Shown: positions 7,707-59,125 of the stretch, in pieces
Layout: each line of letters opens with the position of its first letter
How positions within the stretch are numbered: the first letter of the stretch is position 1
Source: a virus
Virus record (IMG/VR): IMGVR_UViG_3300037296_000220
Span: 38,535 to 102,534 of that record
DNA: 64,000 nt
Strand: one strand, 5' to 3'
Notes under the pieces: model-generated
Database searches by the model: none
The model's input: only the letters and a program-made list of their open reading frames with translations
Told to the model about the DNA's origin: nothing
Position numbers and translations under genes: made by a program

Positions 7707-7797
7707 TGTTGAGTTCCTTACGTTATTTTAGAGGTTTCAATTACTGTTACGGGTTGGTTAAAACACACCAACATAGTTGTTTGTGTGAATTGATAGA

Positions 7798-8445
7798 TTA
7801 AGCTGTTTTAGCCCGGGCATCAAGCAGATTCTCTTTTCTACCTGCAGGTGATTCGTTCATGCGCAAAGAGGTCTGCTTCTCTGCCCGAACGTCAGCACCG
7901 GCCTGGATCAGCATGTCACGACGATGGCGGAAGGATTCGACAATCTCCGACAGCAGTTCGTAAATGTGATCCGCCTCCAGGTACTGCTCTTTCGCTTCCT
8001 GAAAGCCGATTGATGCCTGAATGCGCTTGGTAATGGCGCCTTCGGTAATCTTCTCGCTGTCCTGGGCAGCCAGGCGGCGGATCGCCGTGTCCATCTTGGC
8101 TTCAGTCAGCTCCATGCGCTGTTTGAACCGCTTGGCCTGCATGTGCGCTTTGGCTTTGGCGTGCGCGTAATGCACATAAAGAGCCGCCTGGTCGACGAAG
8201 GCCGACTGCATGTCCTGGATGTTGAACGTCACATCCTCCTTGAACTTGTCCATGTTGACGAAGGTTTCAGGGCGATCAGGCAGATGACCCGGTTTAGTCG
8301 TCGGTGCGGCGTTGCCCATTGCTGGGGGTGGCGTCGCTTTCTTTGGTGTTGGTGGCGCTTCAGCCTTAGTTGCCGGCTCTTCTACGCTACCGTTCTCAAT
8401 GTCGTCAAGCAGTGCGTCCAGATCCATGTCCAAATCATCTGACAT
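7798..8445 (-). CDS. UvsY-like recombination mediator (probable start MSDDLD)
   Basis: Helical C-terminal domain (TEGAIT..I, YLEA, ESFRHRRDML); next to SSB and RecA; GAGAGG RBS before ATG 8445. Confidence 0.65.
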   Translation of the reverse strand: MSDDLDMDLDALLDDIENGSVEEPATKAEAPPTPKKATPPPAMGNAAPTTKPGHLPDRPETFVNMDKFKEDVTFNIQDMQSAFVDQAALYVHYAHAKAKAHMQAKRFKQRMELTEAKMDTAIRRLAAQDSEKITEGAITKRIQASIGFQEAKEQYLEADHIYELLSEIVESFRHRRDMLIQAGADVRAEKQTSLRMNESPAGRKENLLDARAKTA

Positions 8446-8510
8446 TGTGTTGCCTCTCAGTTTGTGTGTTAGTTGTCTGTTTGTATTATCGCAAGCAAGC
8501 GACACCCCTG

Positions 8511-11500
8511 CTAGTCAAGAATGTCGACTACCTGCGCGACTGCTTCGTCGATCAGCTCACGGCGCGAGTCATCGAAGAAGCACATATTGGGGTTTATCCC
8601 AATGACGTAACTGGTGTCCTGGCCATGATCGTACTCGACCTGCCCAGCCAGTTGTTCAAACCCACCCTGCACCTCTGGCAGTAGGTAGTTGCGAGCCTTA
8701 GTGCCCATGATCAGCACGACAGCCGGGTTTAGCAGCTCAATCTCCCGCTTCAGACTTGGGCCATAGACACGGATCATTTCAGAGACATAGTCTTCCGGCA
8801 TGTCCTTTGTCTTGTTGGCCTTGATCAGCGCGGTTTGATAGAGGTCAGAGCGCTTGTAACCCGCCGCCTTGAAGCCCGGTAGGATGAAGTCGGCATAGTC
8901 GCCCTCCCCTATTTTACCCATCTTCTCATCTTTGAAGTTGCCGTTGTCGTAGATCACCATGACTCTCGGATTTTTACCCAAACGGGGCGCGAGCGAAATC
9001 TCGATAGCCAACTCATTCTCGGCCTTCATGCTGTACTTCTCGACCTCCTTCGACAATTCATCAATCACATGCGGCTGCAGGTCCAGCTTCCGATCGGCCT
9101 TTACGGCAGCAAGCATGATGCCGGGCATTGCCGCCTTCTGAGACTTGAGTCGGGTCGGGTGCAGCGGGTCATCCTGGTTCTCGATACCGGCGAACACCCC
9201 AATGTCATCGAGCATCGACTGAATCCGCTTGTTGACGTAGCGCTTATTGGTGATGTTCTCCAAAAAGTGCGCGAAGCTGGTGAAGCTGCCACCCGCCTTC
9301 TCCCGACACTCCATGATGTGCTCACTGGCGTTCTGCGTCAGGCCCTTCACCATCTGGAACGGGGCATAGATCACCCGGCGTTTGCGGTTGCTGTCGTAGC
9401 CAATCTCGAACCGACTGGTGCTGATGTTCACGTCCGGTGGCATGACGTACACACCCCGCCGCTCAGCATCTTTCACCAAGCCCATGCGTTTGTCTTCGCC
9501 CAGAATCGTCAGTGCGGCCGCAAAGAATGCCTCCGGCTTGTACACCTTCAACCACATTGCCCAGAAGGCAATGATCGCGTACTCCACCGAGTGCGACTTG
9601 TTGAAGCCGTAGCCGGCGAACTTCTCGATGATGTCGAACAGGCCCGCTGCCTCCGTCTCTTCCATCTGTGAGTGAGACTTGCACCCAGCGACCCAGCTAT
9701 CGCGCACTTTGGCCATCTGCTCAGCGTCTTTCTTGCCCATCGCTTTACGAAGGTGGTCGGCCTGAGCCATCGAGAAGCCCGCTAGATCACGCGCGACCTG
9801 CATGACCTGCTCCTGGTACACGATGACCGAATACGTCGATTCCAGGGCCGGGATCATCGAGTCATGTGGATATGTGGGGCTCATGTAACCCCGCTTAATC
9901 GCCTTGAAGTTGTCGGTTAGACCTGAGTCCAGTGGGCCTGGCCGGAACAGGGCGTTACAGGCTGACAAGTCTTCAAAGGTCAGCGGGTCATTCTCAGCCA
10001 GCTCACGCAATAGACCCCGCATACCGCCCGACTCGAACTGAAACACCCCCAACGTCTCACCCAGGCCGAAGGCTTTAAGCACTTCCGGGTCTTCGAGTGG
10101 GATTGTGGTGTAGTCCAGGTCTTCCTTGTCCTGCTCCTTGATGTAGTCTTTGGCCAGGCGCAGCAGATCCAATGTGCTCAGGCCCAGTACGTCGAGCTTG
10201 ACCAAGCCAAACTCTTCACAGCTTCGTTTATCCCAGTTGATCACCTGGTTCTCGCCCCGCTTCTCAACGATGGCTCGATTAGACAGCTCAGTGTCAGCCA
10301 CGATCACCCCGGCGGCGTGCACCCCGTAGTTGCGAAACACCTTCTGCAACTTGATGGCGTTGCCAAACAATACTGGATCTCGTTTGGCAAAATCCTTCAG
10401 CTCGGGCACTTGCTCAATGGCTTCCTCCAGGGATACCGGCTGGCCGTGATTGCTGGGGATGCGTTTGGCCACCTTCATTTCAGCTTCGGTGTAGCCCAGG
10501 GATTTGGCCACGCTACGCAGTGCCGACGAGCTGCCCAATACCCCATAGTTCGAGATTTTGGCCACGCGCTCTTTGCCGTACCGATCGGACAGGTAGTTAT
10601 ACACTTCGCCCAGTCGGGAACTCATGAAGTCAAGGTCGATGTCGGGTAAGTCCAGTCGCTCCGGGTTGATGAACCGTTCGAAGAACAGGTTGAAGCGGAT
10701 CGGATCAACGTCAGTGATGCCCATCAGGAAGGCTACGATTGAGCCGCCGACTGAGCCTCGACCAGGGCCGACGATAATACCCTGCTGCTTTGACCAGCTC
10801 ACCAGGTCATGCACCAGGAGGAAGTAGTCTTCAAAGCCCATGTCTTTCAAGATGGTCAGCTCACGCTTGAGCCGGTCCTTGTACTGAGGAATCAGCGACA
10901 CGTCCGGCTTGTAGCCCAGAAACGGCTTGTCGATGCGCTCCTTCCAGCCCTGAACGCAGAGCTTGGTCATGGCGGCGCTGGGGTTGGCCGCAAGCGAGGG
11001 CAGCGACACATCCATCTTCTCCCACTTGTACGAGAACTGATCTGCCCAGGGCCCGTTGGAATGGACATAGGCTTTGTTCAGCAGTTCAGCACCCGGCACA
11101 TCGATGAAGCCGTCGCCCTTCATCATGTGAACCCACTTCTTGAACTTCATGATGCCGTCTTTGCGACCCAAAATACCCATGTCGGAGCCACCGGCTGCAG
11201 CAAAGGGGCTGTCCAGTCGGGTGTTGAAGTTCAGGATGTTGGCCATGATGTTGCGCGAGTCTGCCATACCCTCTGCGTACAGCGTCGGACGGCTGACAAG
11301 CACTTTTCGGGAACGCATCTGTGCGCTGTTCAGAGCGCGCTTAGACACTTGACGATAGTAGAGACTGTCAGCATACGGGCACTCAATATAGAAGCGCTCA
11401 GTGTCGTTCCCGATAGCGTTTTCAATGCGATCAATGATCGCTTCGCGCTGATCATGGGCGAAGATTGAGCCGATACCACCGGTTGTTATCACCACGTTGC

Positions 11501-13534: not shown

Positions 13535-13620
13535 TCTGTCGAACTCCTGAAAACCTAGTTAGTTGTTTGTGTGTTTTAAAATAGTATCGCATTAGTTCAA
13601 TGCGATACACAATGGGGTGA

Positions 13621-16002: not shown

Positions 16003-16047
16003 AAAGAGTTCCTTACTCACTTAGTAGTTTGTGTATTATAAGCGCAT

Positions 16048-16291: not shown

Positions 16292-16344
16292 GCAGTTTTA
16301 CTAAAGTACCCGGTTTCCCTAGTACGCGTGTTTGTGTGATGGAG

Positions 16345-16374
16345 ATCATAGAACGACGGCGTTTTGTGTGTCAA
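16345..16374 (-). promoter_or_regulatory. Leftward sigma70-like promoter
   Basis: TTGACA-N18-TATGAT on the minus strand, followed by a CACACAAACA half-site. Confidence 0.6.
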
Positions 16375-16524: not shown

Positions 16525-17019
16525 ATGGCCAATGTTAAAAAACACTTTCAAGAGACGGGCGTACCCGCTGCCGATTTGTTGAATGAATACCTACAAAACT
16601 GTGACAAAACGCAGACTGAAATCACCAAAGAATTGGGTGCTTTAACTGGCGCTCGTTCTTTCGGTAGCTTGATGACTCAATGGAAAACGGGTCGTTCACC
16701 GATCCCATTGCGCATGGTTCTCCCACTGTGTCGCATCATCGATGCTGAGCCGGGTCCGATGTTTCAAGCAATTCTTGAACATCAGATGCCCGATGCCCTC
16801 GTTGCTCTTGAGCATTTGTCCGGGCAGTCTTTCAGCCCCGGCGAGCGAGTCATGCACGACCTGGTTATCGAAACAGTAAATGAAGCCAAGAACGCTTTCA
16901 AAAAAGAAAGTCGCTCTCCGAAGGCTGAAGTGGTAGCGACGTTCGATCTGTCCCCAGAGAGAAAAGCGGCTATCAAAGCGGCTATCAAAAAAGCAACCGT
17001 GGTTAAGTATTCCAGCTAA
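16525..17019 (+). CDS. XRE-like HTH regulator, candidate repressor
   Basis: TQTEITKELG...MTQWKTGRSPIP helix-turn-helix pattern; divergent position. Confidence 0.7.
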   Translation: MANVKKHFQETGVPAADLLNEYLQNCDKTQTEITKELGALTGARSFGSLMTQWKTGRSPIPLRMVLPLCRIIDAEPGPMFQAILEHQMPDALVALEHLSGQSFSPGERVMHDLVIETVNEAKNAFKKESRSPKAEVVATFDLSPERKAAIKAAIKKATVVKYSS

Positions 17020-17040
17020 TTTAAATTAGCCGACCTTCCA

Positions 17041-17062
17041 AAGGGCCATCTGGCCCTTTTTT
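17041..17062 (+). terminator. Rho-independent terminator
   Basis: AAGGGCCA-TC-TGGCCCTT followed by TTTT. Confidence 0.7.
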
Positions 17063-17124
17063 GTTGCCTGCAATAAATCCCTGCCTTATCCTTTTGGAAC
17101 AATTTATAAAAGGCAGGGAAAATT

Positions 17125-18234
17125 ATGAAAAGAGTTGCCACCGCGGACGACTTCATGGCCATGATGAAGTCAGGTGAACAGGACTTGGCCAACCTCAGAA
17201 CAGAAACCAACAACCCTCAACCCACCAAGGTCGCACGCACCTGGTCATTGGAGGAAGCGGTAGGCATGGTGAAGAAGCCCGCCAAGTGGGTGCTTAGTGA
17301 AGCAGGCAAAGCGGGCTATACTGACCAGGAACGCTTCTCATTGGAGGTCATCAACCACCTGAGAGACGCTGCCGGCACTCGATTCTCCAAACCTGTTGGC
17401 GCGCCAACACCCACCCTGCTGATCTCCAACTTCAAAGGCGGGGTAGGTAAATCCACGACGACGATACACCTGGCACAATACTGTGCCATCCAGGGGCTGA
17501 AAGTCCTGGTGGTAGAGCTGGACCCCCAGGCCACCACAACCGAGAACCTGCTGAACTGCTCACCAGCGACCGAGCTGACCCGAGAGCAAACCCTGGTCCC
17601 TGCCCTGCTCGATGACACGGACGACTTTCTGCCCTGCATCCAGTGGACCTACTTTCCCGGCGTAGCCATTGCCCCCGGCAACCTGTTCTTGCAGCAAGTG
17701 GACAGCAACATCGTGGATACAGTCGACGAGATGGGCGACCCAGCGACCCGGTTGTCTCGCTGCCTGGAGGAAGCAAAGGAGCACTTCGACCTGATTGTGA
17801 TCGACTGCCCACCTAACATGGGGTGGCTCACAACGAACGCTCTGTATGCAGCCGATGGGTTGCTGACCCCAGTACCCCCTGCCCTGTTTGACCGGGCCTC
17901 ATTCACTCAGTTGGCTGGTACGATCGGAACCTTTGCGCGCAACTACAACAAGGAGTTCAAACTGTTCCGCATCCTGATCACCAAGCACGGCAAGTCCACT
18001 GAGGCCCGGCGCAACGAGAAGAAGATGCGCGAGACCTACGGCGACTGGGTGATGAAAAACTGCTTCTATGTGACCACCGAGATAGAGAAGGCCAGCGCTG
18101 TCTATTCCTCTGTGTACGACCTGATGAAGCCGATGAACAAACGTGAAACCTATCAGCGAGCCCTGGACATTGTGAACCGGGTTAACGCCGAAATACTGCA
18201 AGACGTACAGCAATTGTGGGAGACCAAACTATGA
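17125..18234 (+). CDS. parA: Type Ia partition ATPase ParA
   Basis: Deviant Walker A KGGVGKST, DPQA, IDCPP; N-terminal extension. Confidence 0.93.
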   Translation: MKRVATADDFMAMMKSGEQDLANLRTETNNPQPTKVARTWSLEEAVGMVKKPAKWVLSEAGKAGYTDQERFSLEVINHLRDAAGTRFSKPVGAPTPTLLISNFKGGVGKSTTTIHLAQYCAIQGLKVLVVELDPQATTTENLLNCSPATELTREQTLVPALLDDTDDFLPCIQWTYFPGVAIAPGNLFLQQVDSNIVDTVDEMGDPATRLSRCLEEAKEHFDLIVIDCPPNMGWLTTNALYAADGLLTPVPPALFDRASFTQLAGTIGTFARNYNKEFKLFRILITKHGKSTEARRNEKKMRETYGDWVMKNCFYVTTEIEKASAVYSSVYDLMKPMNKRETYQRALDIVNRVNAEILQDVQQLWETKL

Positions 18235-19205
18235 GCGATGCATTTTCATCCGGCCCTCTGGGCACTCAGGCTTTTGCCAAGAAAGAGAAGAAAGAGGCTC
18301 CGAAGCCTGAAGGGACCAAGCCAGTGCAAAAGGTTCAAAAGCCGTCCGATCGAACCCCCAACAACCCTACTAAGGCCCCAGTATCTACTCAAAAAGGGTC
18401 CGTTAATGGAACGCTGCTGAAGGTCGACCCCGACAAGTTGAGCGTCTGGCGCTACGCTGATCGCCCTATCGAGGAAATGGGTGACCTGGCAGAGCTTGCC
18501 TCCAACATTCGCACCGTCGGTCAGATAGCTCCGGTCGTCGCTCGCCCATTAGGCTCAGGGAAATACGAACTCGTTGCCGGGCGCCGCAGATACGAAGCCT
18601 GCAAACTTGCAGGTATTGAAGTCCTTGTTCTATCACGCGAACTTTCCGATGTGGAAGCCCTGGCTATTCAGGATTCGGAGAATGATTCACGGGACTCTAT
18701 CAGCCCTGCTGCAAAAGGTATTCACTATCGTCGACTTCTTGATGATGGGGTTTTTAACTCAGTCAACCAGATGGCTATTCGTTTTGAGAAAAACAGAACC
18801 TCTTTGATAGAGCTGCTGAGGTTCGCAGATATCCCAAAAGACCTACGTGACGCTATTGGTGACCTCTCTCAAATGTCCCAACGCATGGCTAGGTTTCTGG
18901 TTCCGTTCTGTGAATCCCATAAAAACCACCTAGAATTACTAACGCCATTCGTAGACGACCTGAGAGCAGGCAAAGCTACACCAAGAATGATTGAAGATTC
19001 AATTAACCTCCCTGGTGTCTCACTTGATGAAGGAAACACTCAGATAAAAGGCAAAAACGGTGAGGCGTACTTCACGCTGAATAGAACAAAGCAGGGAGGC
19101 CTTTCGATCAATGTGCTGAAGTCTGGTAGGAGAATCTTTAATCAGGAGGTGCTTGTGAAGGCTCTGGAAGGTTTTATCGAAGACCAGATCAAAGACAGAA
19201 CCTGA
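18231..19205 (+). CDS. parB: Partition protein ParB
   Basis: GQIAPV, AGRRRY arginine patch, ENDSR, HTH; ATGA overlap with parA. Confidence 0.92.
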   Translation: MSDAFSSGPLGTQAFAKKEKKEAPKPEGTKPVQKVQKPSDRTPNNPTKAPVSTQKGSVNGTLLKVDPDKLSVWRYADRPIEEMGDLAELASNIRTVGQIAPVVARPLGSGKYELVAGRRRYEACKLAGIEVLVLSRELSDVEALAIQDSENDSRDSISPAAKGIHYRRLLDDGVFNSVNQMAIRFEKNRTSLIELLRFADIPKDLRDAIGDLSQMSQRMARFLVPFCESHKNHLELLTPFVDDLRAGKATPRMIEDSINLPGVSLDEGNTQIKGKNGEAYFTLNRTKQGGLSINVLKSGRRIFNQEVLVKALEGFIEDQIKDRT

Positions 19206-22730: not shown

Positions 22731-23216
22731 CTACAGTTGGGTAGCTTCAATGATTTGAGCCGGGTTGAATTGAGTCAGTTCTGACTTCTTGTCAGTCTTG
22801 GTTGTTTGTTTGTTTTGAGTGGGTTTAGTCGGCTTAGAGCCGCTGATGAACGGCTTGGCATTCCAGCCACGCTGATACCCTTCGGACTGGGTGTCGACGT
22901 TGCGACGGTCCTCTTCCAAACGTTTGTCTTCCAGGGTAGGTCGGGCCTGAGCTTCGACATGCACATAGGGCACATAGTAGAGAGCCTTGCCCGCTTTTTT
23001 CTCTTCCCGAAGCATGCCTATGGCAGGGCATGACCGGTCTTTGATGCAGCCCTGGCAATCCTTAAAGCGATCCGGGCCCAGCAAAGTCTCTCCGTTGACG
23101 GTTTTGCGCAGGCTGAGGCTGATTACATTCAGGCAGACTGCATAGGCGGCGCCCGGTCGTTTGGTTGGTTCGCAGTTGATGCGGTGTGTGTTGTCCGCGC
23201 TTTTACTTAGGTGCAT
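22731..23216 (-). CDS. Cys-rich hypothetical protein
   Basis: C...YAVC...C..C....CPA pattern; in operon. Confidence 0.65.
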   Translation of the reverse strand: MHLSKSADNTHRINCEPTKRPGAAYAVCLNVISLSLRKTVNGETLLGPDRFKDCQGCIKDRSCPAIGMLREEKKAGKALYYVPYVHVEAQARPTLEDKRLEEDRRNVDTQSEGYQRGWNAKPFISGSKPTKPTQNKQTTKTDKKSELTQFNPAQIIEATQL

Positions 23217-26772: not shown

Positions 26773-26826
26773 TCTGGATAACTCCAACTTAGTTGTCTGT
26801 GTGTTTTAGAATCATAGCGCAAGCGT

Positions 26827-27528: not shown

Positions 27529-27612
27529 CAGGGCTCGGATTAGTTAGTTGTTTGTGTGAATTGAATTGTGACACAACAACTTATGGGATAGCAACTCAGA
27601 CGTTTGCTTATG

Positions 27613-30444: not shown

Positions 30445-30803
30445 TTGGGCATCCCCTTCACTTGACCGGCTCCTAGCGTGAGATCCAGCATGTCATCAGT
30501 GGTTTTGAACTTGTTGATGGCTGAATCCAGCGAGTAGCCGACTGCGATCATCATCAACAGGCCACCCACTGTGGACACATCCACCTGGTCCTGGGAGATC
30601 AGCACGACGATGGTCAGCAGCATTGAGAAGAAGGCTTGGGCGGTGGAGTAGGGGGCACTTTTGAAGAAGTAATCGACCAGGGTGGCCTCGATCTCGCTGC
30701 GCCGGCTCTTCTTGCCAAAGTGGAAGAGGGCGCCCAAGATCGCAAAGGCCATGCCCAGCACCACGTCAGGCCACCACATCACGTCCAATAGGGATATGTT
30801 CAC
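30441..30803 (-). CDS. Probable holin
   Basis: Three hydrophobic segments; between endolysin and spanins. Confidence 0.7.
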   Translation of the reverse strand: MNISLLDVMWWPDVVLGMAFAILGALFHFGKKSRRSEIEATLVDYFFKSAPYSTAQAFFSMLLTIVVLISQDQVDVSTVGGLLMMIAVGYSLDSAINKFKTTDDMLDLTLGAGQVKGMPK

Positions 30804-31276
30804 GACTCGTAAACCTCATAGGCTGTCTTGCTGTGCGAGTTCCAGAAGGCGGTCAGGAACTCATGACGTGGCTCTGCTTCGGCCCGGCGGACACCCAGGT
30901 GTATCCACTCGCCGTATTCGTAAATGCACTGATCGATGAAGGGGTACTTTTCACGGTTGTCGTAGATGAACTGGTACATGTCATCGACGGAAACCTTGGG
31001 CGAGGTGAAGTCGATGGCCAGAGCGTCCTTGTGAGCGCTGGTCTTGGAGCCGCCCAGCTTGCGATTCAGACGAGGCGTCCGGTAGCCGCTGGAAATGCTC
31101 ACAGGAACGTCTTTACCGAAATGTTTGGACATGTCATCACGCAGGGTCTGGGCGCACACCGCCAGGAACGCAACGTTATCCATCAACTTTGCCGGGACCG
31201 AGTTGTCGATGCCGTATTTGCGCGCAGTGCGACTGATCGTGAACTCGCTCAGTGGGAAGTTACGAGTTAGCTTCAT
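30800..31276 (-). CDS. Endolysin, peptidase M15 family (start MKLTRNF)
   Basis: SSGYR, SAH...AID, WIH zinc-binding motifs. Confidence 0.88.
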   Translation of the reverse strand: MKLTRNFPLSEFTISRTARKYGIDNSVPAKLMDNVAFLAVCAQTLRDDMSKHFGKDVPVSISSGYRTPRLNRKLGGSKTSAHKDALAIDFTSPKVSVDDMYQFIYDNREKYPFIDQCIYEYGEWIHLGVRRAEAEPRHEFLTAFWNSHSKTAYEVYES

Positions 31277-31674: not shown

Positions 31675-31704
31675 CGAATATACCACACTTAGTTGTTTGT
31701 TTGA
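31675..31704 (-). promoter_or_regulatory. Late-type promoter for lysis genes
   Basis: CAAACAAACAACTAAGTG-TGG-TATATT; 30 bp identical to 59096-59125. Confidence 0.7.
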
Positions 31705-36977: not shown

Positions 36978-37005
36978 GATTATACCAAACTTAGTTGTTT
37001 GTGTG
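36978..37005 (-). promoter_or_regulatory. Late-type promoter for the tail fibre
   Basis: CACACAAACAACTAAGTT-TGG-TATAAT. Confidence 0.7.
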
Positions 37006-42416: not shown

Positions 42417-42442
42417 AATTCACACTTAGTAGTTTGTGTGTA

Positions 42443-46939: not shown

Positions 46940-46964
46940 AAAAAGAGGCGGCCGAAGCCGCCTT
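46940..46964 (-). terminator. Terminator after the tail tube gene
   Basis: AGGCGGC-TTCG-GCCGCCT followed by CTTTTT. Confidence 0.75.
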
Positions 46965-46984
46965 CTCACTTAGTTGTTTGTTTG

Positions 46985-48715: not shown

Positions 48716-48743
48716 GATTATAACAAACTTAGTTGTTTGTGTA
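48716..48743 (-). promoter_or_regulatory. Late-type promoter for the neck/tail operon
   Basis: TACACAAACAACTAAGTT-TGT-TATAAT. Confidence 0.7.
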
Positions 48744-48745: not shown

Positions 48746-49450
48746 TTACAAGTCCACGAAGGCGAAGCTGTTCGGATGAAAGTACACCGACTCCAGATCC
48801 TGATACTCAGACAGATCAAACTCCCGACCGTGAAAGCGATGCCCGGGTCGATCAATGCGCCCTTGCGACTGCCCCAGCTTTAACCAGGTGGCTGTCCGGA
48901 CAACGTTGACGATCTCCAGGTAGCCCTGCTGCAAGTGATTGCGAATGTAGTTCTCCGCTTTCAGGCGCCGACCAATACTGTCCATGTGCTCAAACTCGGG
49001 CATGCCAAAGTTTGCGCTGGCCTTCCCGTCCAGATCCGCAAGCTGATACATGCGAAAGTGTTTCAGTACGGTTTGCGCGTCTGACCCAAGCTGATGAATG
49101 ACGTTGTCGAGCAGTCTGTTTGACGCGCTCTCAGCATACGCTTGGACGAACGTTTTCAGCTCAGTAGTGTGTTGGTTTGACTCAGTCCCGGGTGCGCGCT
49201 GTAGTGCGTATGAGAGCGCTTTCTCGAACGCGACCGTCGCAGTGTCCTGTATTTCTTCCTTGATCACCGGGCCGTAGTGACCTAGCGCCCAATGACATTG
49301 TGTCACCAATGGGTTGAACTGGGTCAGCGGCTCGTCATGAACTGTCGCGTTTTGGTAGGCACCGATCAAGGTGTCCTGATACAGAGAGTAATGCTGCAGG
49401 GTTTTGGCCACCTGGGCGCGCAACAGGGCGCGCAATTCATCATTGTTCAT
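48746..49450 (-). CDS. Virion morphogenesis protein (minor head protein-like)
   Basis: DSIGRR and C-terminal FHPN motifs; position. Confidence 0.6.
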   Translation of the reverse strand: MNNDELRALLRAQVAKTLQHYSLYQDTLIGAYQNATVHDEPLTQFNPLVTQCHWALGHYGPVIKEEIQDTATVAFEKALSYALQRAPGTESNQHTTELKTFVQAYAESASNRLLDNVIHQLGSDAQTVLKHFRMYQLADLDGKASANFGMPEFEHMDSIGRRLKAENYIRNHLQQGYLEIVNVVRTATWLKLGQSQGRIDRPGHRFHGREFDLSEYQDLESVYFHPNSFAFVDL

Positions 49451-50310
49451 CGAGACACCTTTGCGGTCCAGTTGACCAAGCCTTTCATGGCGTCCATCGT
49501 TTTGCGGCTGACGGGCAGTGCCACCGGCTTTGAGGTTTGAAAGAAGTGCGTACTTTCACCGGCAGAATGTGACAAAAGTCCCGCTTTGCGTCGCTCTTCA
49601 ATTGGGTCGCCACCCAGCAGGTAGTTGGCCTCGATCAACGTGGCCAGCATCAGTTGTTTGCGAACCCGCTCGGTTAACATGCCCAACTCCGCCAGGTCCA
49701 GATCGTTGGTAGTGCTCACGATGTTGTCCGGGGTTGCCTGAATGTTGACCCGAACCAGGCCAATGTTGTCGTAGGCGTTCATGATCGCTGTGCGGAAGGT
49801 TGACAGGTCTGTGCTCAGATACTGACCCAGTGCCGGCAAATCCAGGCGGCGTTGAGCCAGCTTGATCAGGTCATCCTCAACCGCAAAGCTGTCCACGCCG
49901 GGTGTCAGGCCTTCCGGCTCAAAGTAAAGAACTTGGCGCTGCAGGTAGCTCTCGCCCTCTTCGTCAAAATTCAGGTCGAAGGTTGAGACCGAGTCGGCAC
50001 TGCCTCCGTTGGGCAGGTATGCGATTGCCTTACCTTCTTTGATGATCAGGTGATATTGCTCGCCGAAGCTCAGAAACACATCGACCAGAACAACCGTTGT
50101 GTCAGGGTATGTCAGGGTTATGACCGCTTTGTCACTGCCTTCAAACCCGCTGGGGATTGAGCCCTGAGCAAAGACATTACTTAACCAATTGATTGCCTGA
50201 CCAAAGGCGAAGGTGGCAAAGGGGGTGGTCAGTTCGGCATCCGTCCCGACTGGGTAAGTCAGGCCATAGAGCAAACTGGTCTTTTCGGGTGTTCCAGCCG
50301 GGATGATCAT
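49447..50310 (-). CDS. Head-tail adaptor-like protein
   Basis: GVDSF, EANYLLGGD, GL.S...GES pattern; position. Confidence 0.65.
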   Translation of the reverse strand: MIIPAGTPEKTSLLYGLTYPVGTDAELTTPFATFAFGQAINWLSNVFAQGSIPSGFEGSDKAVITLTYPDTTVVLVDVFLSFGEQYHLIIKEGKAIAYLPNGGSADSVSTFDLNFDEEGESYLQRQVLYFEPEGLTPGVDSFAVEDDLIKLAQRRLDLPALGQYLSTDLSTFRTAIMNAYDNIGLVRVNIQATPDNIVSTTNDLDLAELGMLTERVRKQLMLATLIEANYLLGGDPIEERRKAGLLSHSAGESTHFFQTSKPVALPVSRKTMDAMKGLVNWTAKVSR

Positions 50311-50368
50311 AGATTCTCACTTAGTTGTCAGTGTGCCGAATGTACCGCAATTTGGCACGAAACTCCAG

Positions 50369-50393: not shown

Positions 50394-53300
50394 TTATGTT
50401 GACAGCGCCATCTTGTTCAAGGTGAGCTGGGGTGTTCCGGTTGTGGGTGTCGTCGGGTCAGGGGTAAACGTCACGGTTGTGTCGTTCGATGCTGTGACAG
50501 TAACGGGGTAATCCGCCCCTGCAACGGTCACAAACCCTTCCCAATACTGACTCGCTTCCAGGCTGGCTGACAACGAGAATGTCACCACGTTCGACTGCCC
50601 CAGGCGCAACACGTTGTCACCATTGATGCCCGTCACTTCATTTACGGAAGGCGCTTCAACAGTCACGGTGCGTGTTGCTGTGCCAGTGTTACCCCGTGAG
50701 TCCGTCACTGAGTAAGTCAGGGTATAAACCCCATCTGTACCAGTGTCGACTGACCCCGTCACAACAACTGCGCCGGTGATGTTTCCATCCAGGTTATCGC
50801 TGGCTGAGAAGCCCGGCTCTGTCCAGGTGTCACCCCGGGTCAGCGTGACCGCGCCGCCCACAAGCGTAATGACAGGCAGCACAGCATCGGCTGTTACGGT
50901 GACGGTGCGCGTCGCCGTACCGGTGTTATCTGCCGAGTCAGTGACGCTGTAGGTCAGAACGTACTGGCCAGGCACCGCCGTGTTCACTGAACCCGTGATC
51001 GTCACTGAACCCGTGATGTTTCCATCCAGGTTGTCGCTGGCTGTGAAGCCCGGCTCTGCCCAGGTGTCACCCTCTGCGATTGACACATCCCCGCCGGTCA
51101 ACGTGATCACCGGCAAAACGGTATCAGCCACCACTGTCACAGTTCGAGTAACAGAACTCTCGTTGCCGGCTGCATCCGTCACGCTGTAGGTCAGGATGTA
51201 AGTGCCTGGCACGGCAGAGTTCACTGTGCCCGTAACCACAACTGAGCCGGTTAAGTCGCCGTCAACGCCGTCGTTCGCTGAGTAGCCAGGTTCCGAGAAC
51301 GCTTCACCTTCAGCAATGGAAATGTCGCCATCGGTCAAAGTGATGACGGGGGCAGTAACATCCAAACCTGTAACGGTGACAGTACGAGTAGTTGTGCCGG
51401 TGTTGCCGGCGGCATCTGTAACACTGTAGGTTAGAACGTATTGACCCGGTACCGCCGTATTGACAGTGCCTGAGATCGACACAGAGGCGGTCAGATCACC
51501 GTCTTCGTTGTCTGTCGCTAAATAGCCGGGCTCGGTCCAGGCTGTACCCTCCTCAATCGACACATCACCATCAGTCAGAGTGATAACGGGCGCGATACCG
51601 TCTGCTATCCCGACATTATTTGCTGTTACCAATGGCAACCCGGTATCACTTAATACCGCCCCACTGATGTCAGGGTCGGCTTCAAAGTGATAAGTTAGTA
51701 ACGATGTTGTCGCCAAGGCGGCGTGCGTCAGCTCGATCTGGTCGTTGCCGACTGCAACCGCTGCGCTGATCGCCTCACCTTCAGTAAAGCGAAAACCAGT
51801 AATGCCTGTCTGTGGAGTAATGGCGGTGACGTTGGCCAGTGTGACGACGGTTGTGGTTGCAGAGGTTGCCGCTGCCGACACGACGGTGGGCGCAGAGTCG
51901 TATGGCAAACCTTCCAACACTGAACCAACTACGGTCGCAGCACGCTCAGCCTGGATAGCGTAGGCAGCGTTCGTCAGATGCACTGTGTCGCCGTGCATGG
52001 TCAGGTCGTAGGAGTAAGCAGCTCGATACACGCCATCTGTCTGCAAGAACTGTTCTTCGGCCTCAAGCAAATACTGCCACTGAATATCAGTCCGGGGCGG
52101 TGTGCCTCGCTGCACCCCAATGTTGAAAAAGGGAACACTGGCGCCAACTAGAGTTTGGACCCGGTTGTGCAGTCGCGTGAACTTGTCTAGGGCGTCTGCC
52201 GTATCGACTAGCGCTTCCCAGGCGGCGTCGTTGTAGCCGGCAATCATGACTACACCAGCAATCGCTGTGCCCTGAGCCGCGAGGTTCTGCACAGCAGTTT
52301 GAAACAGAGGGTATTGCGAGCTTCCGTTGGCCCATGAGCCCATGTGAGAACCGCTATAGCCGAAATCCAGCGCAAGCATTGCGGCTCCGGTGATTGCGGT
52401 AATGCTAGCCGCAAATGACAAGCCGCCCTGACCCGATGTCACATTGTTCCGGTATCCATCCTGATCGAGCACGACAAAGCCCGGCACTTCTGTACCTGAA
52501 CCATTGCCATACCAGTATTGCATCGAACTATCGCCGATCATCCCGAACACGTCGCCCACATACCAGGCGCCAGATGCGACCGTCGAGCTGACCGGGGTTC
52601 CTGACAGCATCGATCGCACTTCTACGGTGTAAGGCTCAACGCTTTTGGGTACCACAATATCAACTGTAAAGTCATCAGCGCCAACCGTAGAGGATGTCCA
52701 ACTAACCACCTCTGTCACGCCTTGTATTACGCGTACTTCAACATCGTCCAGCTCAGCACCGGCCTCAAACGTGCCGCTTACGGTGACTGTGCCGTTATCC
52801 CCTGTCCGGGTCACGAACTGATTTTCAACAGGGGCCGTGATGGTAGGCGTTGTGACAGCCGCCTCAACCACTGTGACGGTTCGGGTGGCTGTGACGGTGT
52901 TTTCTGCGGCGTCCGTCACTGAGTAGTTCAGCGTGTACGTCCCAGCCGTAGAAGTGTCTACTGTGCCCGTAACACCTACGTTCGAGGTGATGTCACCGTC
53001 CACGTTGTCAGTCGCAGAGTAGCCCGGGTCTGTCCAGGTTGACCCAACAACCCTGGTCACGTCACCATCGACCAGCGTGATTACTGGAGCTGTGGTATCT
53101 GCTACTGCTGGTGCTGCACTGGCAAACCCGAACCAGGCGGACCAATCTGAAGTCACAGCATCCAGGGTTTCATTAACCCGGTATTCATACTGAGTTTCAG
53201 AGGCAAGGCCTGCCAGTGCGTAGCTGGGGCTGGTCAGACCTGAGACCAGAGTTTCGTTACCTGTGTCGTTTAGCAGACGCCATTGCAGATCGTTGGTGGC

Positions 53301-53969
53301 ACCGGTTGGGCCGGCATCCCAGGACAGGTCCACAGTTGTCTCAGTGGCGTTATCTGCAGCCAAGCCGGTTGGTACACTTGCAGCAACGTCATACTCAATC
53401 CACTGACTGTCATCACCCACAAAATTGAGCAACGTGCCGTCGTTTCCGCCAATCTCATCAATCAGCACTAGCCCGGTGCCACCGGAGGCATCGGCATTCC
53501 AGTAATGCGAGATACCGCCGGGTGCCTCAAGGCTGACGCTGTACAAGTCATAGTCGGAGTAATAGTTGGTCGATACTTGGCCAAAGCGCTCAAATTCAAA
53601 TGTAGCGGGATGGTTGCCTGCAATCGTGCGAACGGCCCCACCATTAACCTGTATTCCTATAACGCCAGCCGTTCGAGTAAAGACCACGGTGAACCGCTGG
53701 CCCTGACCAGGCCAGTAATCCGTTGGGTCGCCGTAGTTGATGAAACCCCCGCCGGCAACGTTCCAGAAGACCCCAGGGCTGCCGTAGACTGCGGCGAAGT
53801 TCTGGTTGCTTGTGGCGCCACCAAACAGCACAGCAGCCCCGCCGTTGCCACTGTTCGTCACCATGGATATGTCCATAGTGATCGTAAAGTCACCGGTCAG
53901 TTGTATCGCTGAAGCAAGCTGTACCCACTCGTTTGTAGTACGACCCAGTTTTCGTAGAAAGTGCGCCAT
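50394..53969 (-). CDS. Multidomain protein: LamG-like, FN3, Ig-like repeats and SGNH hydrolase
   Basis: Five PVITL..YSVTD.AGN..RTVTV repeats; GDSS, GYND and DTVH motifs. Confidence 0.85.
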   Translation of the reverse strand: MAHFLRKLGRTTNEWVQLASAIQLTGDFTITMDISMVTNSGNGGAAVLFGGATSNQNFAAVYGSPGVFWNVAGGGFINYGDPTDYWPGQGQRFTVVFTRTAGVIGIQVNGGAVRTIAGNHPATFEFERFGQVSTNYYSDYDLYSVSLEAPGGISHYWNADASGGTGLVLIDEIGGNDGTLLNFVGDDSQWIEYDVAASVPTGLAADNATETTVDLSWDAGPTGATNDLQWRLLNDTGNETLVSGLTSPSYALAGLASETQYEYRVNETLDAVTSDWSAWFGFASAAPAVADTTAPVITLVDGDVTRVVGSTWTDPGYSATDNVDGDITSNVGVTGTVDTSTAGTYTLNYSVTDAAENTVTATRTVTVVEAAVTTPTITAPVENQFVTRTGDNGTVTVSGTFEAGAELDDVEVRVIQGVTEVVSWTSSTVGADDFTVDIVVPKSVEPYTVEVRSMLSGTPVSSTVASGAWYVGDVFGMIGDSSMQYWYGNGSGTEVPGFVVLDQDGYRNNVTSGQGGLSFAASITAITGAAMLALDFGYSGSHMGSWANGSSQYPLFQTAVQNLAAQGTAIAGVVMIAGYNDAAWEALVDTADALDKFTRLHNRVQTLVGASVPFFNIGVQRGTPPRTDIQWQYLLEAEEQFLQTDGVYRAAYSYDLTMHGDTVHLTNAAYAIQAERAATVVGSVLEGLPYDSAPTVVSAAATSATTTVVTLANVTAITPQTGITGFRFTEGEAISAAVAVGNDQIELTHAALATTSLLTYHFEADPDISGAVLSDTGLPLVTANNVGIADGIAPVITLTDGDVSIEEGTAWTEPGYLATDNEDGDLTASVSISGTVNTAVPGQYVLTYSVTDAAGNTGTTTRTVTVTGLDVTAPVITLTDGDISIAEGEAFSEPGYSANDGVDGDLTGSVVVTGTVNSAVPGTYILTYSVTDAAGNESSVTRTVTVVADTVLPVITLTGGDVSIAEGDTWAEPGFTASDNLDGNITGSVTITGSVNTAVPGQYVLTYSVTDSADNTGTATRTVTVTADAVLPVITLVGGAVTLTRGDTWTEPGFSASDNLDGNITGAVVVTGSVDTGTDGVYTLTYSVTDSRGNTGTATRTVTVEAPSVNEVTGINGDNVLRLGQSNVVTFSLSASLEASQYWEGFVTVAGADYPVTVTASNDTTVTFTPDPTTPTTGTPQLTLNKMALST

Positions 53970-54356: not shown

Positions 54357-54358
54357 TG

Positions 54359-55123: not shown

Positions 55124-55124
55124 G

Positions 55125-55565
55125 TTAGCTGCCCCGCTTTGCTTTCAAGGCCAGCAGACCGTCGATGATGCCAACGATCGAGGTGCCCTTGACGCCATAG
55201 GGGGTAGCAAATTCACGCAAAGGTGAAATGCCCTGGTCGGCCAGTTCAGCTAGGGTTTCAGCAGTGAAGTCCCAGGTTAGGCTTTCATCGGTAGGCACTT
55301 TCACTTCAGCCTTTTTCTTGCCGGTCGCCTTGACCGCCTTACCTTCGATGGACTTGTTGCGAGATTTCAGCTCGCGAGTACCGGCGCCGCCCTGCTCGCT
55401 GGAGCCGTCGGTATTGAGCACTTCAATTTGTACGATCGCACCAATCTGCTCAACTTCCCGGGAGGTCAGTTCGTCAACGGAGACGCCTTCTACAAATTGG
55501 TGAACGCCGAAAAAGCCGGTCAGGTTCATCCATCCTTTGCTCAGTAATTTGATCTTGTTAGCCAT
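55125..55565 (-). CDS. Capsid-associated protein
   Basis: Directly after the major capsid gene; short helical C-terminal motif. Confidence 0.65.
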   Translation of the reverse strand: MANKIKLLSKGWMNLTGFFGVHQFVEGVSVDELTSREVEQIGAIVQIEVLNTDGSSEQGGAGTRELKSRNKSIEGKAVKATGKKKAEVKVPTDESLTWDFTAETLAELADQGISPLREFATPYGVKGTSIVGIIDGLLALKAKRGS

Positions 55566-55580
55566 ATAACCCTCTCAAAC

Positions 55581-55602
55581 AAAAGGGGCTCGAAGCCCCT
55601 TA
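55581..55602 (-). terminator. Terminator after the major capsid gene
   Basis: AAGGGGCT-TCG-AGCCCCTT followed by TT. Confidence 0.72.
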
Positions 55603-55645
55603 TAAGTTAACTCACCAAATAATCAATCTTAGTTGTTTGTGTGAA

Positions 55646-56551
55646 TTAGACGTTAGTAATACCGTACAGAGCAGCCAGGGACTGAGTGCTCTTCAGTGCA
55701 ACACTCCAGTAGGCCTTGAGGCGTGTACGGGTGGCATCTTTATTTTGGACGGTGCCCAGGTCTTCGACGATGATGCCGGCAGATTCGCCACCGTAGATGC
55801 CGTGCAGACCGTCTACTTCGTTCAGGCGAACGGCGTAGATGGAGCAGGTGTCGTCAGCAGTACCCTGAGCGACATCACCTTCGATGAAGTCGTTGATCAG
55901 GATGGGCACGCCGTCGAACGCCGGGACCGAGAAACCGAAGTCTTCGATCATGAAACGTTCGGCAGTGTTACCGCCGGCTGCGCGCAGCAATTGCTTGAGC
56001 GCACGGTAGGTGCCGCGACGCATGACGTAAGCGTCAACGCCATTAGGGACCATGTCTTTCAGTTCGTCGAGCATGTCCATGGACAGAGCCATGCCGTTTG
56101 CACCCGCTTCCAGACGCTGACCGGTGTCGCGCACCAGCTTGTCGATGCCGTCGAAAGACTTGGCGTTGGCAGAAGAGTCACCCTGGACCAGCGCACGCTT
56201 GAACGCACGACCCATACCCTTCGCCTTCATCGCCAACTGAATGGCTTTCTGGTCATTGGTGTCAGACTCAGTACCTTGCAGGAACTTGTCGACATCAACG
56301 TCACCAGCGATGATCCGCAGGCGAGTAGTGATTTCTTCCGCCTGAGAGGCTTCTTCCGGAATGGTGTCGTTCGGGTCAAGGAACACGCCTTCAGACACAA
56401 CGCTTTCGCGGTTGTAGACGTAGGCCTTGCCGTCGGTACGCTGGAACGGCAGGAAGGCGAACAGGTCATCACGGTCGATGATCTCTTCGACGACGCCGCG
56501 CTGCAGGTCGTTGTTGCTGAGGTTATCAGCGATGGTTTTCAGTAATGGCAT
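55646..56551 (-). CDS. Major capsid protein (start MPLLKT)
   Basis: LPF, YNRE, GDVDVDKF, FDGI, SIYAVRL; AGGAG RBS; follows scaffold. Confidence 0.9.
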   Translation of the reverse strand: MPLLKTIADNLSNNDLQRGVVEEIIDRDDLFAFLPFQRTDGKAYVYNRESVVSEGVFLDPNDTIPEEASQAEEITTRLRIIAGDVDVDKFLQGTESDTNDQKAIQLAMKAKGMGRAFKRALVQGDSSANAKSFDGIDKLVRDTGQRLEAGANGMALSMDMLDELKDMVPNGVDAYVMRRGTYRALKQLLRAAGGNTAERFMIEDFGFSVPAFDGVPILINDFIEGDVAQGTADDTCSIYAVRLNEVDGLHGIYGGESAGIIVEDLGTVQNKDATRTRLKAYWSVALKSTQSLAALYGITNV

Positions 56552-56593
56552 TACCTTACTCCTGTCAATTGACAATTGCTTTGCACAAAGGGG

Positions 56594-57469
56594 TTACTTC
56601 TTCGCGTTCAGGGCGCCCAAAATTCGGGAATGCCCGCGAACTTCTTGCTTGTCCAGATCCGGGGTCTTCAGGTCTTCAGTGGTGCGACTGCCCGGGCCTG
56701 GTTTCATCTTGCTTTTAAGCAGTGACTTGCTTTCTGGGTGCTTCGCATACAGCTCTCCAATCGCTGCATCGAAACTCAATGGCTTGCCCTCTGCGTCCAC
56801 CAGGGGTGTTCGATCGGCGGCGCCCGCTGGCTTGTCATAAGCGACAACGCCGCTATCAGACCGCTCAAAGTGACCCAGGAACAGATTTCGAGCGATGCTC
56901 AACGGAATGGCGCTCTCTTTCGAAATGAACTCGGAGTCGCTGAATGAGCGCCCGATGGTCAGTTCTTCCAGTTGCGCGTTGGCTGCGGCCAGTTGCTCTT
57001 TTAAAGTGCCAACTTCGGTAGTCAGTTCTGTCGTGGCGGCTTCGGCTCGGGTCTTCATCTGCTCAACGATTCGGTCGTATTCGCCTTTGCGCTCCAGGTC
57101 TTGTCGTTCACGGTCAGCGCGAGCTTGTTCCAACTGCTCTACTGACTCGACGCCCAATTCCTTCAGAGTGCTGGACAGGCCAGACTGGAGCGATTCGAGC
57201 GTCTTGTTCAATTCAGCCAGTTGGCTGTCGCGAGCTTGCAGATCAGCTTTCAGCTTGGCTTCGGCAGCTTTAGCTTTGTCCGGGTCTGCTGCAGCGGCGG
57301 CTTTGGCGGCTGCAGCGTCTGCTGCGACTGCTTTGTCTGCTGCGGCTTTGTCTGCTGCGGCTTTGTCTGCTGCGGCTTTGTCAGCTTCAGAAGGCTCTTC
57401 ACGAACGAACATCGGCTGAGTTTGTTCAATGCGGTACAAAAAAGGTTCTGCTTTAGACACGTTGGTCAC
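56594..57469 (-). CDS. Capsid scaffolding protein
   Basis: Coiled coil with DKAAA repeats; between portal and capsid. Confidence 0.8.
   Translation of the reverse strand: MTNVSKAEPFLYRIEQTQPMFVREEPSEADKAAADKAAADKAAADKAVAADAAAAKAAAAADPDKAKAAEAKLKADLQARDSQLAELNKTLESLQSGLSSTLKELGVESVEQLEQARADRERQDLERKGEYDRIVEQMKTRAEAATTELTTEVGTLKEQLAAANAQLEELTIGRSFSDSEFISKESAIPLSIARNLFLGHFERSDSGVVAYDKPAGAADRTPLVDAEGKPLSFDAAIGELYAKHPESKSLLKSKMKPGPGSRTTEDLKTPDLDKQEVRGHSRILGALNAKK
57331..57382. repeat. 15-bp tandem repeat (CTTTGTCTGCTGCGG x3.5) within the scaffold gene
   Basis: Direct reading; encodes (DKAAA)n. Confidence 0.9.
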
Positions 57470-57474
57470 TCCAA

Positions 57475-59070
57475 TCAGTTTTTCTGGTCAGCTTCCCGAC
57501 CCTTGGTTTTAGACTGCTTATCGCCAGAACTTTCGCGATTGCGCTTGGCCTCTTCGAGAACCCGGGATTTCTGATCCGGGCTGCCTTCCGTCAGAGCTGC
57601 GGCCGCCTCTTTGGCTTCTTTCACGGCGGCGGTAATCCCCTTCTCCATTTCACTGCGCAACTTTTTGCCCAGGCTTGGCCAGAGCTTGTCAACGACAGAC
57701 ATGGATTGGCGGGTCATCACCTCTTCAGGCATGGCCATGAGGCTCAGTCGCATCGATACATCGAACTCGTCCCACAGGTCGCGGGTTGAGAACTCATGCG
57801 GGTACTTGACAATGTCAGTCCGGGTCGCCCAGTCGGTGTCGCCCGAATACAGGCAGACCACGTTGGCGATTCGGTTTTCCAGGGTTTCCAGGGCATCCGC
57901 CCGGCTGCTCAGCAACGCGGTGACGCGCTCAAAGTCTTTGGACTTGGCGGCGCCACTGGAGTTGTCGATACCCTTGGAGTTGTCCTGCTTGGTGCGCTCA
58001 CCTGCCAGGCCAACGGTGTGATAAATTTCATTGATGATCTTCTCGATCACCGACACGATCAGTGATGCCTGGCGCGGGTCAGGGCTCAGAAACTCAGGCT
58101 TGACACCCTTCTCTCCGTCGAACAGGAACAGGCGCTTGGTGCCAGCGTTCAGTAACGCTTCCTCTTCGGTAGAGCCTGGCAGGATGCCCTGAGCGGGCAT
58201 GGCCAGTTGCGAGAAGGTCTGGTCCTGAATGATCGCGTCCAGGTTGGACAGGTAGTTCGCAACGGCCCGATCAAGGTACGCAATGTCATTGATCAGCGAG
58301 GGTACGTTGTGGGGCTCGCGAGACAGGGTGTGATCTGCCCGAATGACCGGCACCACGCCCAGGTCGTGAGCACCCTGCTCTACCAACTCGACCTTGAGCT
58401 GACTGCGGGCCCGGGTGTTTATCGAGCTGTGATTGCCTTTTGTCAGCTCGATCAAAAACCACTCTGTGCGCGTCCAAAGCCGGTAGCGGTCCTTGATGAC
58501 GATCTCGGTCGCAAATGGGTCGGAGTCGTCACGATACTCTTCGTAAATCAGAATCCAGTTCAGATTGCCGTGTTCATCCCAGCTCATGTCCAGAACGCGA
58601 GTCGGCGGCACGACGTACATGTAAATACCGCCAGCGGCTTCCTCTTCGTCTTTCACGGACGCGTTCTCGGGCAGCTTTTTACTGTTGTCGATCACAACCC
58701 AGGGGCAACCAAACGTGGATGACTTGGTGCTGACGATCCGCATCATTTCAGTCATGTCGATGCCGCGGCTGTCGGTGCTTGACCAGAATTTCTGCAACGC
58801 TTGTGGGGCATCGTCAGCGCGAGTTGGGTGCTGAACGAATTGGTATTTGGTCACCAGGTCAACCACTTCACGGGTGTGGTTGAATCGATAAGCTCGATCT
58901 TTACGGTCACAAAACTCGCCATCACCCTCTTTGAAATACTTGTGCAAATGACGGTCGAAATAGGCACGACCACCCCGGTAGGAGTCCTCAAGGAACTCCC
59001 AGTGGGTTTTCATGGCTTCGTAAAGCGGATGTCTGCGCCGAACAATGGCGCTGAGCTGTTTAATATCCAT
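57475..59070 (-). CDS. Portal protein
   Basis: 531 aa after terL; HPLY, YRGG, LGVVP, SG.AK..D motifs. Confidence 0.88.
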   Translation of the reverse strand: MDIKQLSAIVRRRHPLYEAMKTHWEFLEDSYRGGRAYFDRHLHKYFKEGDGEFCDRKDRAYRFNHTREVVDLVTKYQFVQHPTRADDAPQALQKFWSSTDSRGIDMTEMMRIVSTKSSTFGCPWVVIDNSKKLPENASVKDEEEAAGGIYMYVVPPTRVLDMSWDEHGNLNWILIYEEYRDDSDPFATEIVIKDRYRLWTRTEWFLIELTKGNHSSINTRARSQLKVELVEQGAHDLGVVPVIRADHTLSREPHNVPSLINDIAYLDRAVANYLSNLDAIIQDQTFSQLAMPAQGILPGSTEEEALLNAGTKRLFLFDGEKGVKPEFLSPDPRQASLIVSVIEKIINEIYHTVGLAGERTKQDNSKGIDNSSGAAKSKDFERVTALLSSRADALETLENRIANVVCLYSGDTDWATRTDIVKYPHEFSTRDLWDEFDVSMRLSLMAMPEEVMTRQSMSVVDKLWPSLGKKLRSEMEKGITAAVKEAKEAAAALTEGSPDQKSRVLEEAKRNRESSGDKQSKTKGREADQKN

Positions 59071-59095
59071 AACGACCGTCTACTGGCAGATGGGC

Positions 59096-59125
59096 CGAAT
59101 ATACCACACTTAGTTGTTTGTTTGA
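59096..59125 (-). promoter_or_regulatory. Late-type promoter for the head operon
   Basis: Motif + TGG-TATATT; identical to 31675-31704. Confidence 0.7.

Follow-up and report, generated by a model that had tools for sequence, protein, structure and literature searches.

A 17-bp word in two fixed registers to -10 elements: possible operator of a global repressor in a putative phage-plasmid

The DNA considered here is a 64-kb window of the virus record IMGVR_UViG_3300037296_000220, which is complete, is 102,534 bp long and bears a 127-bp terminal repeat; the window takes in its bases 38535-102534. Our subject is a 17-bp motif (hereafter the 17-mer) that recurs there between genes for replication, virion and lysis proteins. 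Positions are those of the window unless given as genome positions. The genome encodes a plasmid replication initiator (RepA, of the RPA family), a resolvase and MazEF, and a ParA/ParB cassette lies at window 17125-19205; from this gene set the replicon is taken, on sequence, to be a phage-plasmid, that is, a plasmid prophage. Its gene order is syntenic with that of Pseudomonas phage nickie, whose portal protein is 52.5% identical, and more distantly with those of Rhizobium phages and SSU5-type phage-plasmids. A previous reading made from the letters of the window (the sequence-only reading) had listed 14 copies of the motif and had proposed that one protein acts through them as a repressor of early genes and an activator of late genes. 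Here we describe two exact registers in which the 17-mer stands to promoter -10 elements, and consider what kind of molecule would read it.

With the search word CAMACAAACAACTAAGT and at most two mismatches allowed, the 64-kb window holds 15 matches, every one on the minus strand, against 0.01 predicted by shuffles. The 14 listed copies are all real and all have the minus-strand orientation ascribed to them, the positions first given falling 1-3 bp from the true starts (7771, 8467, 13557, 16019, 26787, 27542, 31687, 36989, 42424, 46968, 48727, 50319, 55627 and 59108); the copy placed near 8469, truly at 8467, is a degenerate one with three mismatches. They are also intergenic, as had been said of all copies, but two more lie inside open reading frames (ORFs), at 3106 (one mismatch) and 22796 (two mismatches). 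A position-weight matrix made from the 17-mer sites holds approximately 26 bits of information, and a scan of the full 102.5-kb genome, which had been named as a check, gives 30 sites above 20 bits, the matrix being built from the sites themselves; a looser 12-bit cut-off gives 33 matches in the genome against 0-2 per shuffle in 20 shuffles. The minus strand, where most genes lie, holds 28 of the 30 sites and, with contexts read by eye, 28 are intergenic and 29 are co-oriented with local transcription. The 17-mer is the top word in a de novo word count of intergenic DNA, and it is asymmetric, without dyad symmetry.

Seven of the 30 sites share a layout that we term class L, in which the motif is followed by 1 nt, TG, 1 nt and TAnnnT. 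The class L promoters of the window are these:

59108-59124, minus strand: 17-mer, class L, no mismatches, between the terminase large subunit and portal genes, at -33 to -17
59098-59106, minus strand: extended -10 TGGTATATT of the portal operon promoter, with a -35-like TTCAAA at 17 bp
48727-48743, minus strand: 17-mer, class L, before the neck/tail operon
48717-48725, minus strand: extended -10 TGTTATAAT, with a -35-like TATACA at 17 bp and 10 of 12 matches in the promoter scan
36989-37005, minus strand: 17-mer, class L, directly after the stop codon of a gene for a 1476-aa tail protein and before that for a 1374-aa fibre protein
36979-36987, minus strand: extended -10 TGGTATAAT of the fibre promoter, from the genome extended -10 search and the alignment
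31687-31703, minus strand: 17-mer, class L, before the lysis cassette, with the Peptidase_M15_3 endolysin gene at 30800-31276
31677-31685, minus strand: extended -10 TGGTATATT of the lysis promoter, from the same search and alignment

The class L motif thus ends 4 bp before the -10 hexamer. Its remaining members lie outside the window, at genome 37521 before the ribonucleotide reductase (RNR) genes, at genome 6854 (plus strand) before a thioredoxin-like gene, and at genome 9930, directed antisense into the 3' end of the sole HTH_3 gene. The alignment of the class is gapless, its TG is invariant and is followed past the -10 by a CGGsCC discriminator, and the string of motif, 4 nt and TATAWT is found in 6-7 promoters. 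Conversely, all six consensus intergenic extended -10 elements of the genome's minus strand carry the motif. A weak -35 is formed from the motif's first four bases together with the two bases upstream (TTCAAA, TATACA, AACACA); it sits at the optimal 17-bp spacing, its hexamers are poor and never have G at position 3, and a generic promoter scan chose two of these partial -35/-10 pairs as best matches. Extended -10 promoters of the form TGGTATAAT, with a partial -35 at 17 bp, need neither an activator nor a -35 contact. The claim that the motif lies directly upstream of an extended -10 at four late operons is therefore borne out, with an exact register, but the class is not confined to late genes, since RNR and the thioredoxin-like gene share it.

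At two of the outlying class L promoters there are further features. In front of the RNR genes a GC hairpin (GGGGC, a 7-nt loop, GCCCC; genome 37474-37520, minus strand) begins directly downstream of the promoter's -10 and may be a 5' stabiliser or an attenuator, and the consensus promoter at genome 9930 may be the source of an antisense RNA against the HTH_3 gene, a candidate repressor gene.

A second layout, class M, places the 17-mer on the other side of the -10, as TAnnnT, 7 nt and then the motif. It is found strictly in 7 of the 30 sites, where 0.14 would be expected, and in approximately nine when near matches are included. Counting the seventh base after the -10 as the start site, the motif occupies +2 to +18. 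The class M copies of the window, one near match and two further copies are as follows:

26787-26803, minus strand: 17-mer, class M, +2 to +18 of the DnaB-like helicase promoter, with -10 TATGAT at 26811-26816
13557-13573, minus strand: 17-mer, class M, before the CobS-like gene, with -10 TACTAT at 13581-13586
7771-7787, minus strand: 17-mer in class M register, with -10 TAATCT at 7795-7800, the SSB-like gene beginning 64 nt further on
16019-16035, minus strand: 17-mer with two mismatches, a near match to class M, before the CobT-like gene
8467-8483, minus strand: degenerate 17-mer with three mismatches, separated by 1 nt from an upstream GATAAT, ahead of the gene at 7798-8445
50319-50335, minus strand: 17-mer with two mismatches, 8 nt ahead of the gene at 49447-50310, with TACATT 3 nt upstream

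Within the window class M therefore serves genes of DnaB-like, CobS-like, CobT-like and SSB-like products, and outside it five operons of small genes at genome 12-26 kb. Where the sequence-only reading had the motif 0-7 bp after a -10-like hexamer, the exact 7-nt register holds at 7771, 13557 and 26787, but the copy at 16019 is a near match only. The class M motif is in many cases continued by GAG(G) and the start codon, yet its distance to the ATG varies from 8 to 64 nt, while the distance from -10 to motif stays constant at 7 nt; the register therefore follows the promoter and not translation, and the fixed short distance to a start codon that would mark a translation enhancer is not found. 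Upstream, a gapless alignment shows a CC(A)CAG box exactly 23 bp before the class M -10, at promoters in genome 12078-29135 and at window 13610 and 26840 (minus strand). These promoters have no -35 at normal spacing, and so they seem to need a separate activator or an unusual mode of recognition.

The other copies of the window, together with the half-site and the terminators that accompany them, are listed below:

55627-55643, minus strand: 17-mer 2 nt past the stop codon of the capsid gene, with a degenerate TGaTTATTT downstream of it and, past that, a terminator
55583-55601, minus strand: intrinsic terminator hairpin after the capsid gene, from the terminator scan
46968-46984, minus strand: 17-mer directly after the stop codon of the tail-tube gene, without a -10, a terminator being next
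46946-46963, minus strand: intrinsic terminator hairpin after the tail-tube gene, from the terminator scan
42424-42440, minus strand: 17-mer filling an intercistronic gap (stop codon, 2 nt, motif, 7 nt, ATG), no promoter seen, a stoperator-like position
27542-27558, minus strand: 17-mer in a 413-bp AT-rich gap between a PhoH-like gene and the gene before dnaB
22796-22812, minus strand: degenerate 17-mer with two mismatches, inside an ORF upstream of the DNA ligase gene
3106-3122, minus strand: 17-mer with one mismatch, inside the ORF at 2995-4065
16330-16338, minus strand: 5' half-site CACACAAAC, 6 nt after the TATGAT of a canonical TTGACA-N18-TATGAT promoter (16330-16374)

The two hairpins agree with the statement that copies of the motif sit between stop codon and terminator after the capsid and tail-tube genes, and the post-capsid copy, when placed in the class L alignment, retains the TG plus a decayed -10. 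A half-site downstream of a -10, as was claimed for the leftward control promoter, is seen at 16330. More generally, the 5' half of the motif (CAMACAAAC) stands by itself in nine places in the genome, several of these 6-10 nt after a -10, and the 3' half (AACTAAGT) never does so. Inverted copies also exist in promoter spacers: one in that of the TGtTACAAT promoter that serves the helicase gene at genome 1715 (plus strand), and one at genome 28116, in the spacer of the CCATAG promoter at genome 28141. The direct copy at 27542 has a partial inverted copy 15 nt upstream of it (27542-27600, minus strand).

The genome holds a second, palindromic family of repeats, CTATGTnACATAG, in approximately seven copies (window 24262 and 61192; genome 3501, 13285, 13721 and 23476), some of which occupy spacers of TTGACC- or TTGCAG-type promoters, including upstream of the small terminase gene. 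Several variants of the 17-mer end in CTATGT, a half-site of this palindrome.

Relatives of the replicon are distant. A megablast search against phages gave no close relative, and the portal protein found nothing above 50% identity among viral, metagenome and genome contigs. The motif itself returned single chance matches only from viral contigs, and the class L pattern had 0 matches in genome contigs. The nearest named relative by portal protein, nickie, was considered as a carrier of the motif and rejected, as TGnTATAWT is absent from it and so is any repeated word of such a kind; at the terminase/portal junction it has a single palindrome. Distant relatives whose portal proteins are approximately 44-52% identical have their own dispersed palindromes at the same gene junctions. 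Among seven distinct IMG/VR relatives, six have a sigma70-type promoter at the terminase/portal junction, with 7-10 of 12 matches (at least 8 in five of them) and with a lineage-specific palindrome in its 17-18-bp spacer; one such palindrome, of 20 bp, is GTAAGTAA-N4-TTACTTAC, set in the 17-bp spacer of sigma70-type promoters. A deeper scan of three of these relatives shows 9-10 copies of each one's palindrome in approximately 20 kb, one copy forming a series of stop codon, operator and terminator after the capsid gene, so that there too a hairpin follows the post-capsid operator. These patterns suggest that the placing of lineage-specific operators inside late-promoter spacers may be a habit of the whole family.

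The Salmonella phage-plasmid SSU5 (NC_018843) carries two dispersed palindromes, neither of which we found described in the literature searched. Palindrome A, AAACAAnTTGTTT, has approximately 20 copies in leaders, most commonly (6 of 20) 13 nt after a GATAAT-like -10 and often just before the Shine-Dalgarno sequence, and its sites precede early genes, DnaB, CobT and ParA. Palindrome B, GTAAGTACTTAC, also in approximately 20 copies, comes right after stop codons and is followed in 11 of 22 cases by 1 nt and TAnnnT, at the terminase/portal, post-capsid (before the terminator), fibre, holin, NrdA and ThyA junctions. The positions of A and B thus parallel those of classes M and L here.

In the Bacillus prophage SPbeta a repeated element, SPBRE, is spread across a large prophage and recognised by one master repressor, MrpR/YopR, although host, protein family and site are all different from those considered here. 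There is a likeness also to the C1 operators of P1. Both replicons are plasmid prophages, and in both an asymmetric 17-bp site is dispersed in many copies over separate promoters (PMC8198154), 30 copies and two registers in our case; the P1 record annotates monovalent operators that overlap promoters. However, the operator sequences are dissimilar and no C1-family protein (phrog_1678) is encoded here, and the 17-mer differs further in covering late, lysis and structural promoters too and in keeping to two exact registers only. The operators and stoperators of mycobacteriophage L5 and its Cluster A relatives are asymmetric sites, more than 20 in number, oriented with transcription in promoters and short intergenic gaps, and are bound by a monomeric, two-domain repressor (PMC9283540). 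The co-orientation of 29 of the 30 sites and the promoter-less copies at 42424, 46968 and 55627 are of this kind, but the length of the site (17 bp, against 13 bp in L5), the host and the types of promoter are different, and the copies are mostly locked to promoter elements instead of lying free in gaps.

For class L alone there is also a resemblance to the Lpa-dependent late promoters of P1, consisting of a -22 box and a -10, in which the element likewise ends 4 bp before the -10 and replaces a good -35, the word AAGT is shared, and packaging, tail and lysis operons are served (PMC10695390). The P1 pattern AAGTnACTT-N4-TAnnnT gave 12 matches against 1 for a control pattern. The P1 box is, however, a 9-bp inverted repeat read by an Lpa-family activator, whereas the motif here is asymmetric and 17 bp long, stands at promoters with TG and a consensus -10, and comes in a genome in which no Lpa-family protein was detected. 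Lastly, the 22-bp repeats of coliphage T1 and Citrobacter phage Stevie are asymmetric, mostly intergenic and oriented with transcription, in 16-20 copies (PMC4319613); those phages are lytic, and their repeats are of unknown function with no promoter register described.

We also searched the genome for a protein that might bind the 17-mer. The C1 profile phrog_1678 matches P1 c1 (E 2.8e-142) and nothing in this genome or in SSU5, and tblastn gave only hits with E above 0.05; PF25716 and phrog_1704 match P1 lpa as a positive control and nothing in this genome. For the motif as part of a promoter for a phage RNA polymerase or a phage sigma factor, the searches gave no RNA_pol or Sigma70_r2 match: PF00940, for a T7-like RNA polymerase, had 0 matches in the genome (likewise 0 in the control genomes), and the profile search gave no Sigma70 region 2 and one insignificant Sigma70 r4_2 match. 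The -10 elements that flank the motif are of host type. Among 1.8 billion cluster representatives there is no full-length homologue of the sole HTH_3 protein (genome 8840-9739, plus strand), whose model has a pLDDT of 39. The matches of 38 early or unassigned proteins were confined to Pfam families that are unrelated or are domains of unknown function and to unnamed PHROGs, and none of these is named as a transcription factor. Two proteins put forward as regulators in the sequence-only reading gained nothing from these searches. One, encoded at 61361-61726, matches phrog_900 only, a family whose function is not annotated; the other (16525-17019, plus strand) has no family and is more likely a partition-operon protein, because its gene is the first in an operon ahead of ParA and ParB. 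That ParA/ParB partition operon (16525-19205, plus strand) is inserted in the minus-strand replication module.

We propose, at a probability of roughly 40%, that the 17-mer is the operator of one global repressor of lytic genes, in the manner of P1 C1 operators or L5 stoperators. What is observed is the set of sites, the registers they keep, their association with promoter elements, the plasmid-prophage genes and the analogous networks of relatives; protein binding, the nature of the binder and the sign of its effect at -33 to -17 we infer. The exact register to the -10 on either side, along with the palindromic equivalents in relatives, argues for function at the DNA level, and a single DNA-binding reader is supported as the most economical explanation of the motif. 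The reader would be one phage-encoded, sequence-specific DNA-binding protein, probably a monomer or an asymmetric two-domain protein. At class M promoters (box, N23, TAnnnT) it would block the binding or the escape of RNA polymerase, and a site bound at +2 to +18 is able only to repress. At class L promoters the site would cover the -35 hexamer and the spacer, for which reason these promoters would rely on an extended -10, and binding would occlude them. The promoter-less copies, between cistrons or between stop codon and terminator, would be stoperator-like roadblocks or else decayed promoters.

For class L a repressor is favoured because of the inverted copies in other promoter spacers and the complete promoters that surround the operators of relatives. 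It is most simply supposed that a 17-bp site over the -35 and spacer of a TGGTATAAT promoter also represses; a consensus extended -10 before an endolysin gene in a plasmid prophage requires silencing, and at the lysis promoter the only shared element besides the -10 is the 17-mer.

Several observations weigh against a repressor operator. The seven spacer copies share one orientation and one exact register, which suits an activator and is not required by simple occlusion, although common descent of a cassette of approximately 35 bp could explain it. The 4-bp gap to the -10 is that of the Lpa-dependent late promoters of P1, positive control of late genes is the case in well-studied phages (PMC10695390), and in SSU5 the B-type promoters lack both the -35 and the TG. 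Near transcription starts the 5' half of the motif is also found by itself, and the palindromic family CTATGTnACATAG could be the true immunity operator. Finally, the search found no binder, the sole HTH_3 protein being an orphan without a usable fold model, and the collections searched hold no close relative that might share the motif.

Some of these points lead to the switch that had been proposed originally, in which one protein of the lytic cycle would repress class M from +2 to +18 and activate class L from -33 to -17, perhaps by replacing the contact between sigma region 4 and the -35. The motif, its two exact promoter registers and a repressive position at +2 to +18 are retained from that proposal, but activation at class L is unsupported as it was stated. 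The strict orientation and register of the class L copies, their poor -35 hexamers without G at position 3, the gap shared with the AAGTnACTT-N4-TAnnnT boxes, the portal, tail, fibre and lysis operons served and the usual positive control of late genes would all fit an activator; against this, the consensus TGGTATAAT should fire without one, a prophage repressor would still be needed, the RNR and thioredoxin-like genes belong to the same class, other spacers hold the motif inverted, the operators of relatives sit within complete promoters, and neither an Lpa match nor a sigma70 region 2 nor, among the 38 proteins, a named transcription factor was found. We therefore regard a dual switch as doubtful. 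In its fullest form a single site would have opposite actions according to register, with approximately 12 early and replication promoters turned off and the promoters for dNTP synthesis, virion and lysis turned on, the word itself maybe fused from SSU5-like palindrome half-sites; this seems unlikely, and if true it would mean a temporal switch for the whole genome written with a single word.

A signal at the level of RNA, also named in the sequence-only reading, would make the motif a CA-rich 5' leader acting as a translation enhancer, an S1 landing pad, a stability element, or a site for antitermination or processing. It would account for a class M motif that starts near +2 and continues into a GAG(G) Shine-Dalgarno sequence, for the copies between stop codon and terminator, for the strict co-orientation with transcription and for the CA-rich half-sites in other leaders. 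It loses weight because the distance to the start codon varies, and class L runs counter to it, its motif preceding the start site, keeping an exact register to the -10 and, in one copy, coming after a terminator-like hairpin. Moreover, the differences between copies are mostly transversions, unlike those of RNA-RNA pairing, the equivalent place in SSU5 leaders is taken by palindromes, a type of DNA site, and no Rfam family matched in the window. An RNA signal is thus improbable as the explanation of the 17-mer.

Very improbable is a composite site, in which the 17-mer would join half-sites of two ancestral regulators kept in SSU5 as palindromes A and B, with two different proteins side by side on each copy: the motif does contain AAACAA and then TAAGT, A (in leaders) and B (before the -10) do occupy junctions syntenic with those of classes M and L (DnaB, CobT, portal, post-capsid, fibre, lysis, NrdA), and the 5' half does occur alone where the 3' half never does, but the match is of a 6-mer plus a 5-mer noticed after the fact, the register of TAAGT is 3 bp off that in SSU5, the orientation is head-to-tail, and no regulator common to both phages was identified.

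Dispersed, oriented networks of asymmetric operators are already known from P1 and L5, and the 17-mer is another such network, without a homologue of the known readers; what is distinctive here is the presence of two strict registers and of one promoter class shifted to the extended -10 type. Phage-plasmids of the SSU5 type and their relatives are widely distributed, and in the literature searched there is no description of their transcriptional control. The present replicon offers an unusually clean cis-regulatory map, with three promoter types and approximately 30 control points marked by one 17-bp word, and its control logic is directly testable. Should spacer operators hold across the family, they would explain the divergence of immunity specificities, and such sites are handles for engineering or silencing elements of this type.

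Apart from the motif, one gene of the head-tail module deserves mention: the 1191-aa protein encoded at 50394-53969 (minus strand), which is without a homologue in nickie, contains five Ig-like surface domains, an fn3 domain and a SASA-type carbohydrate esterase domain.

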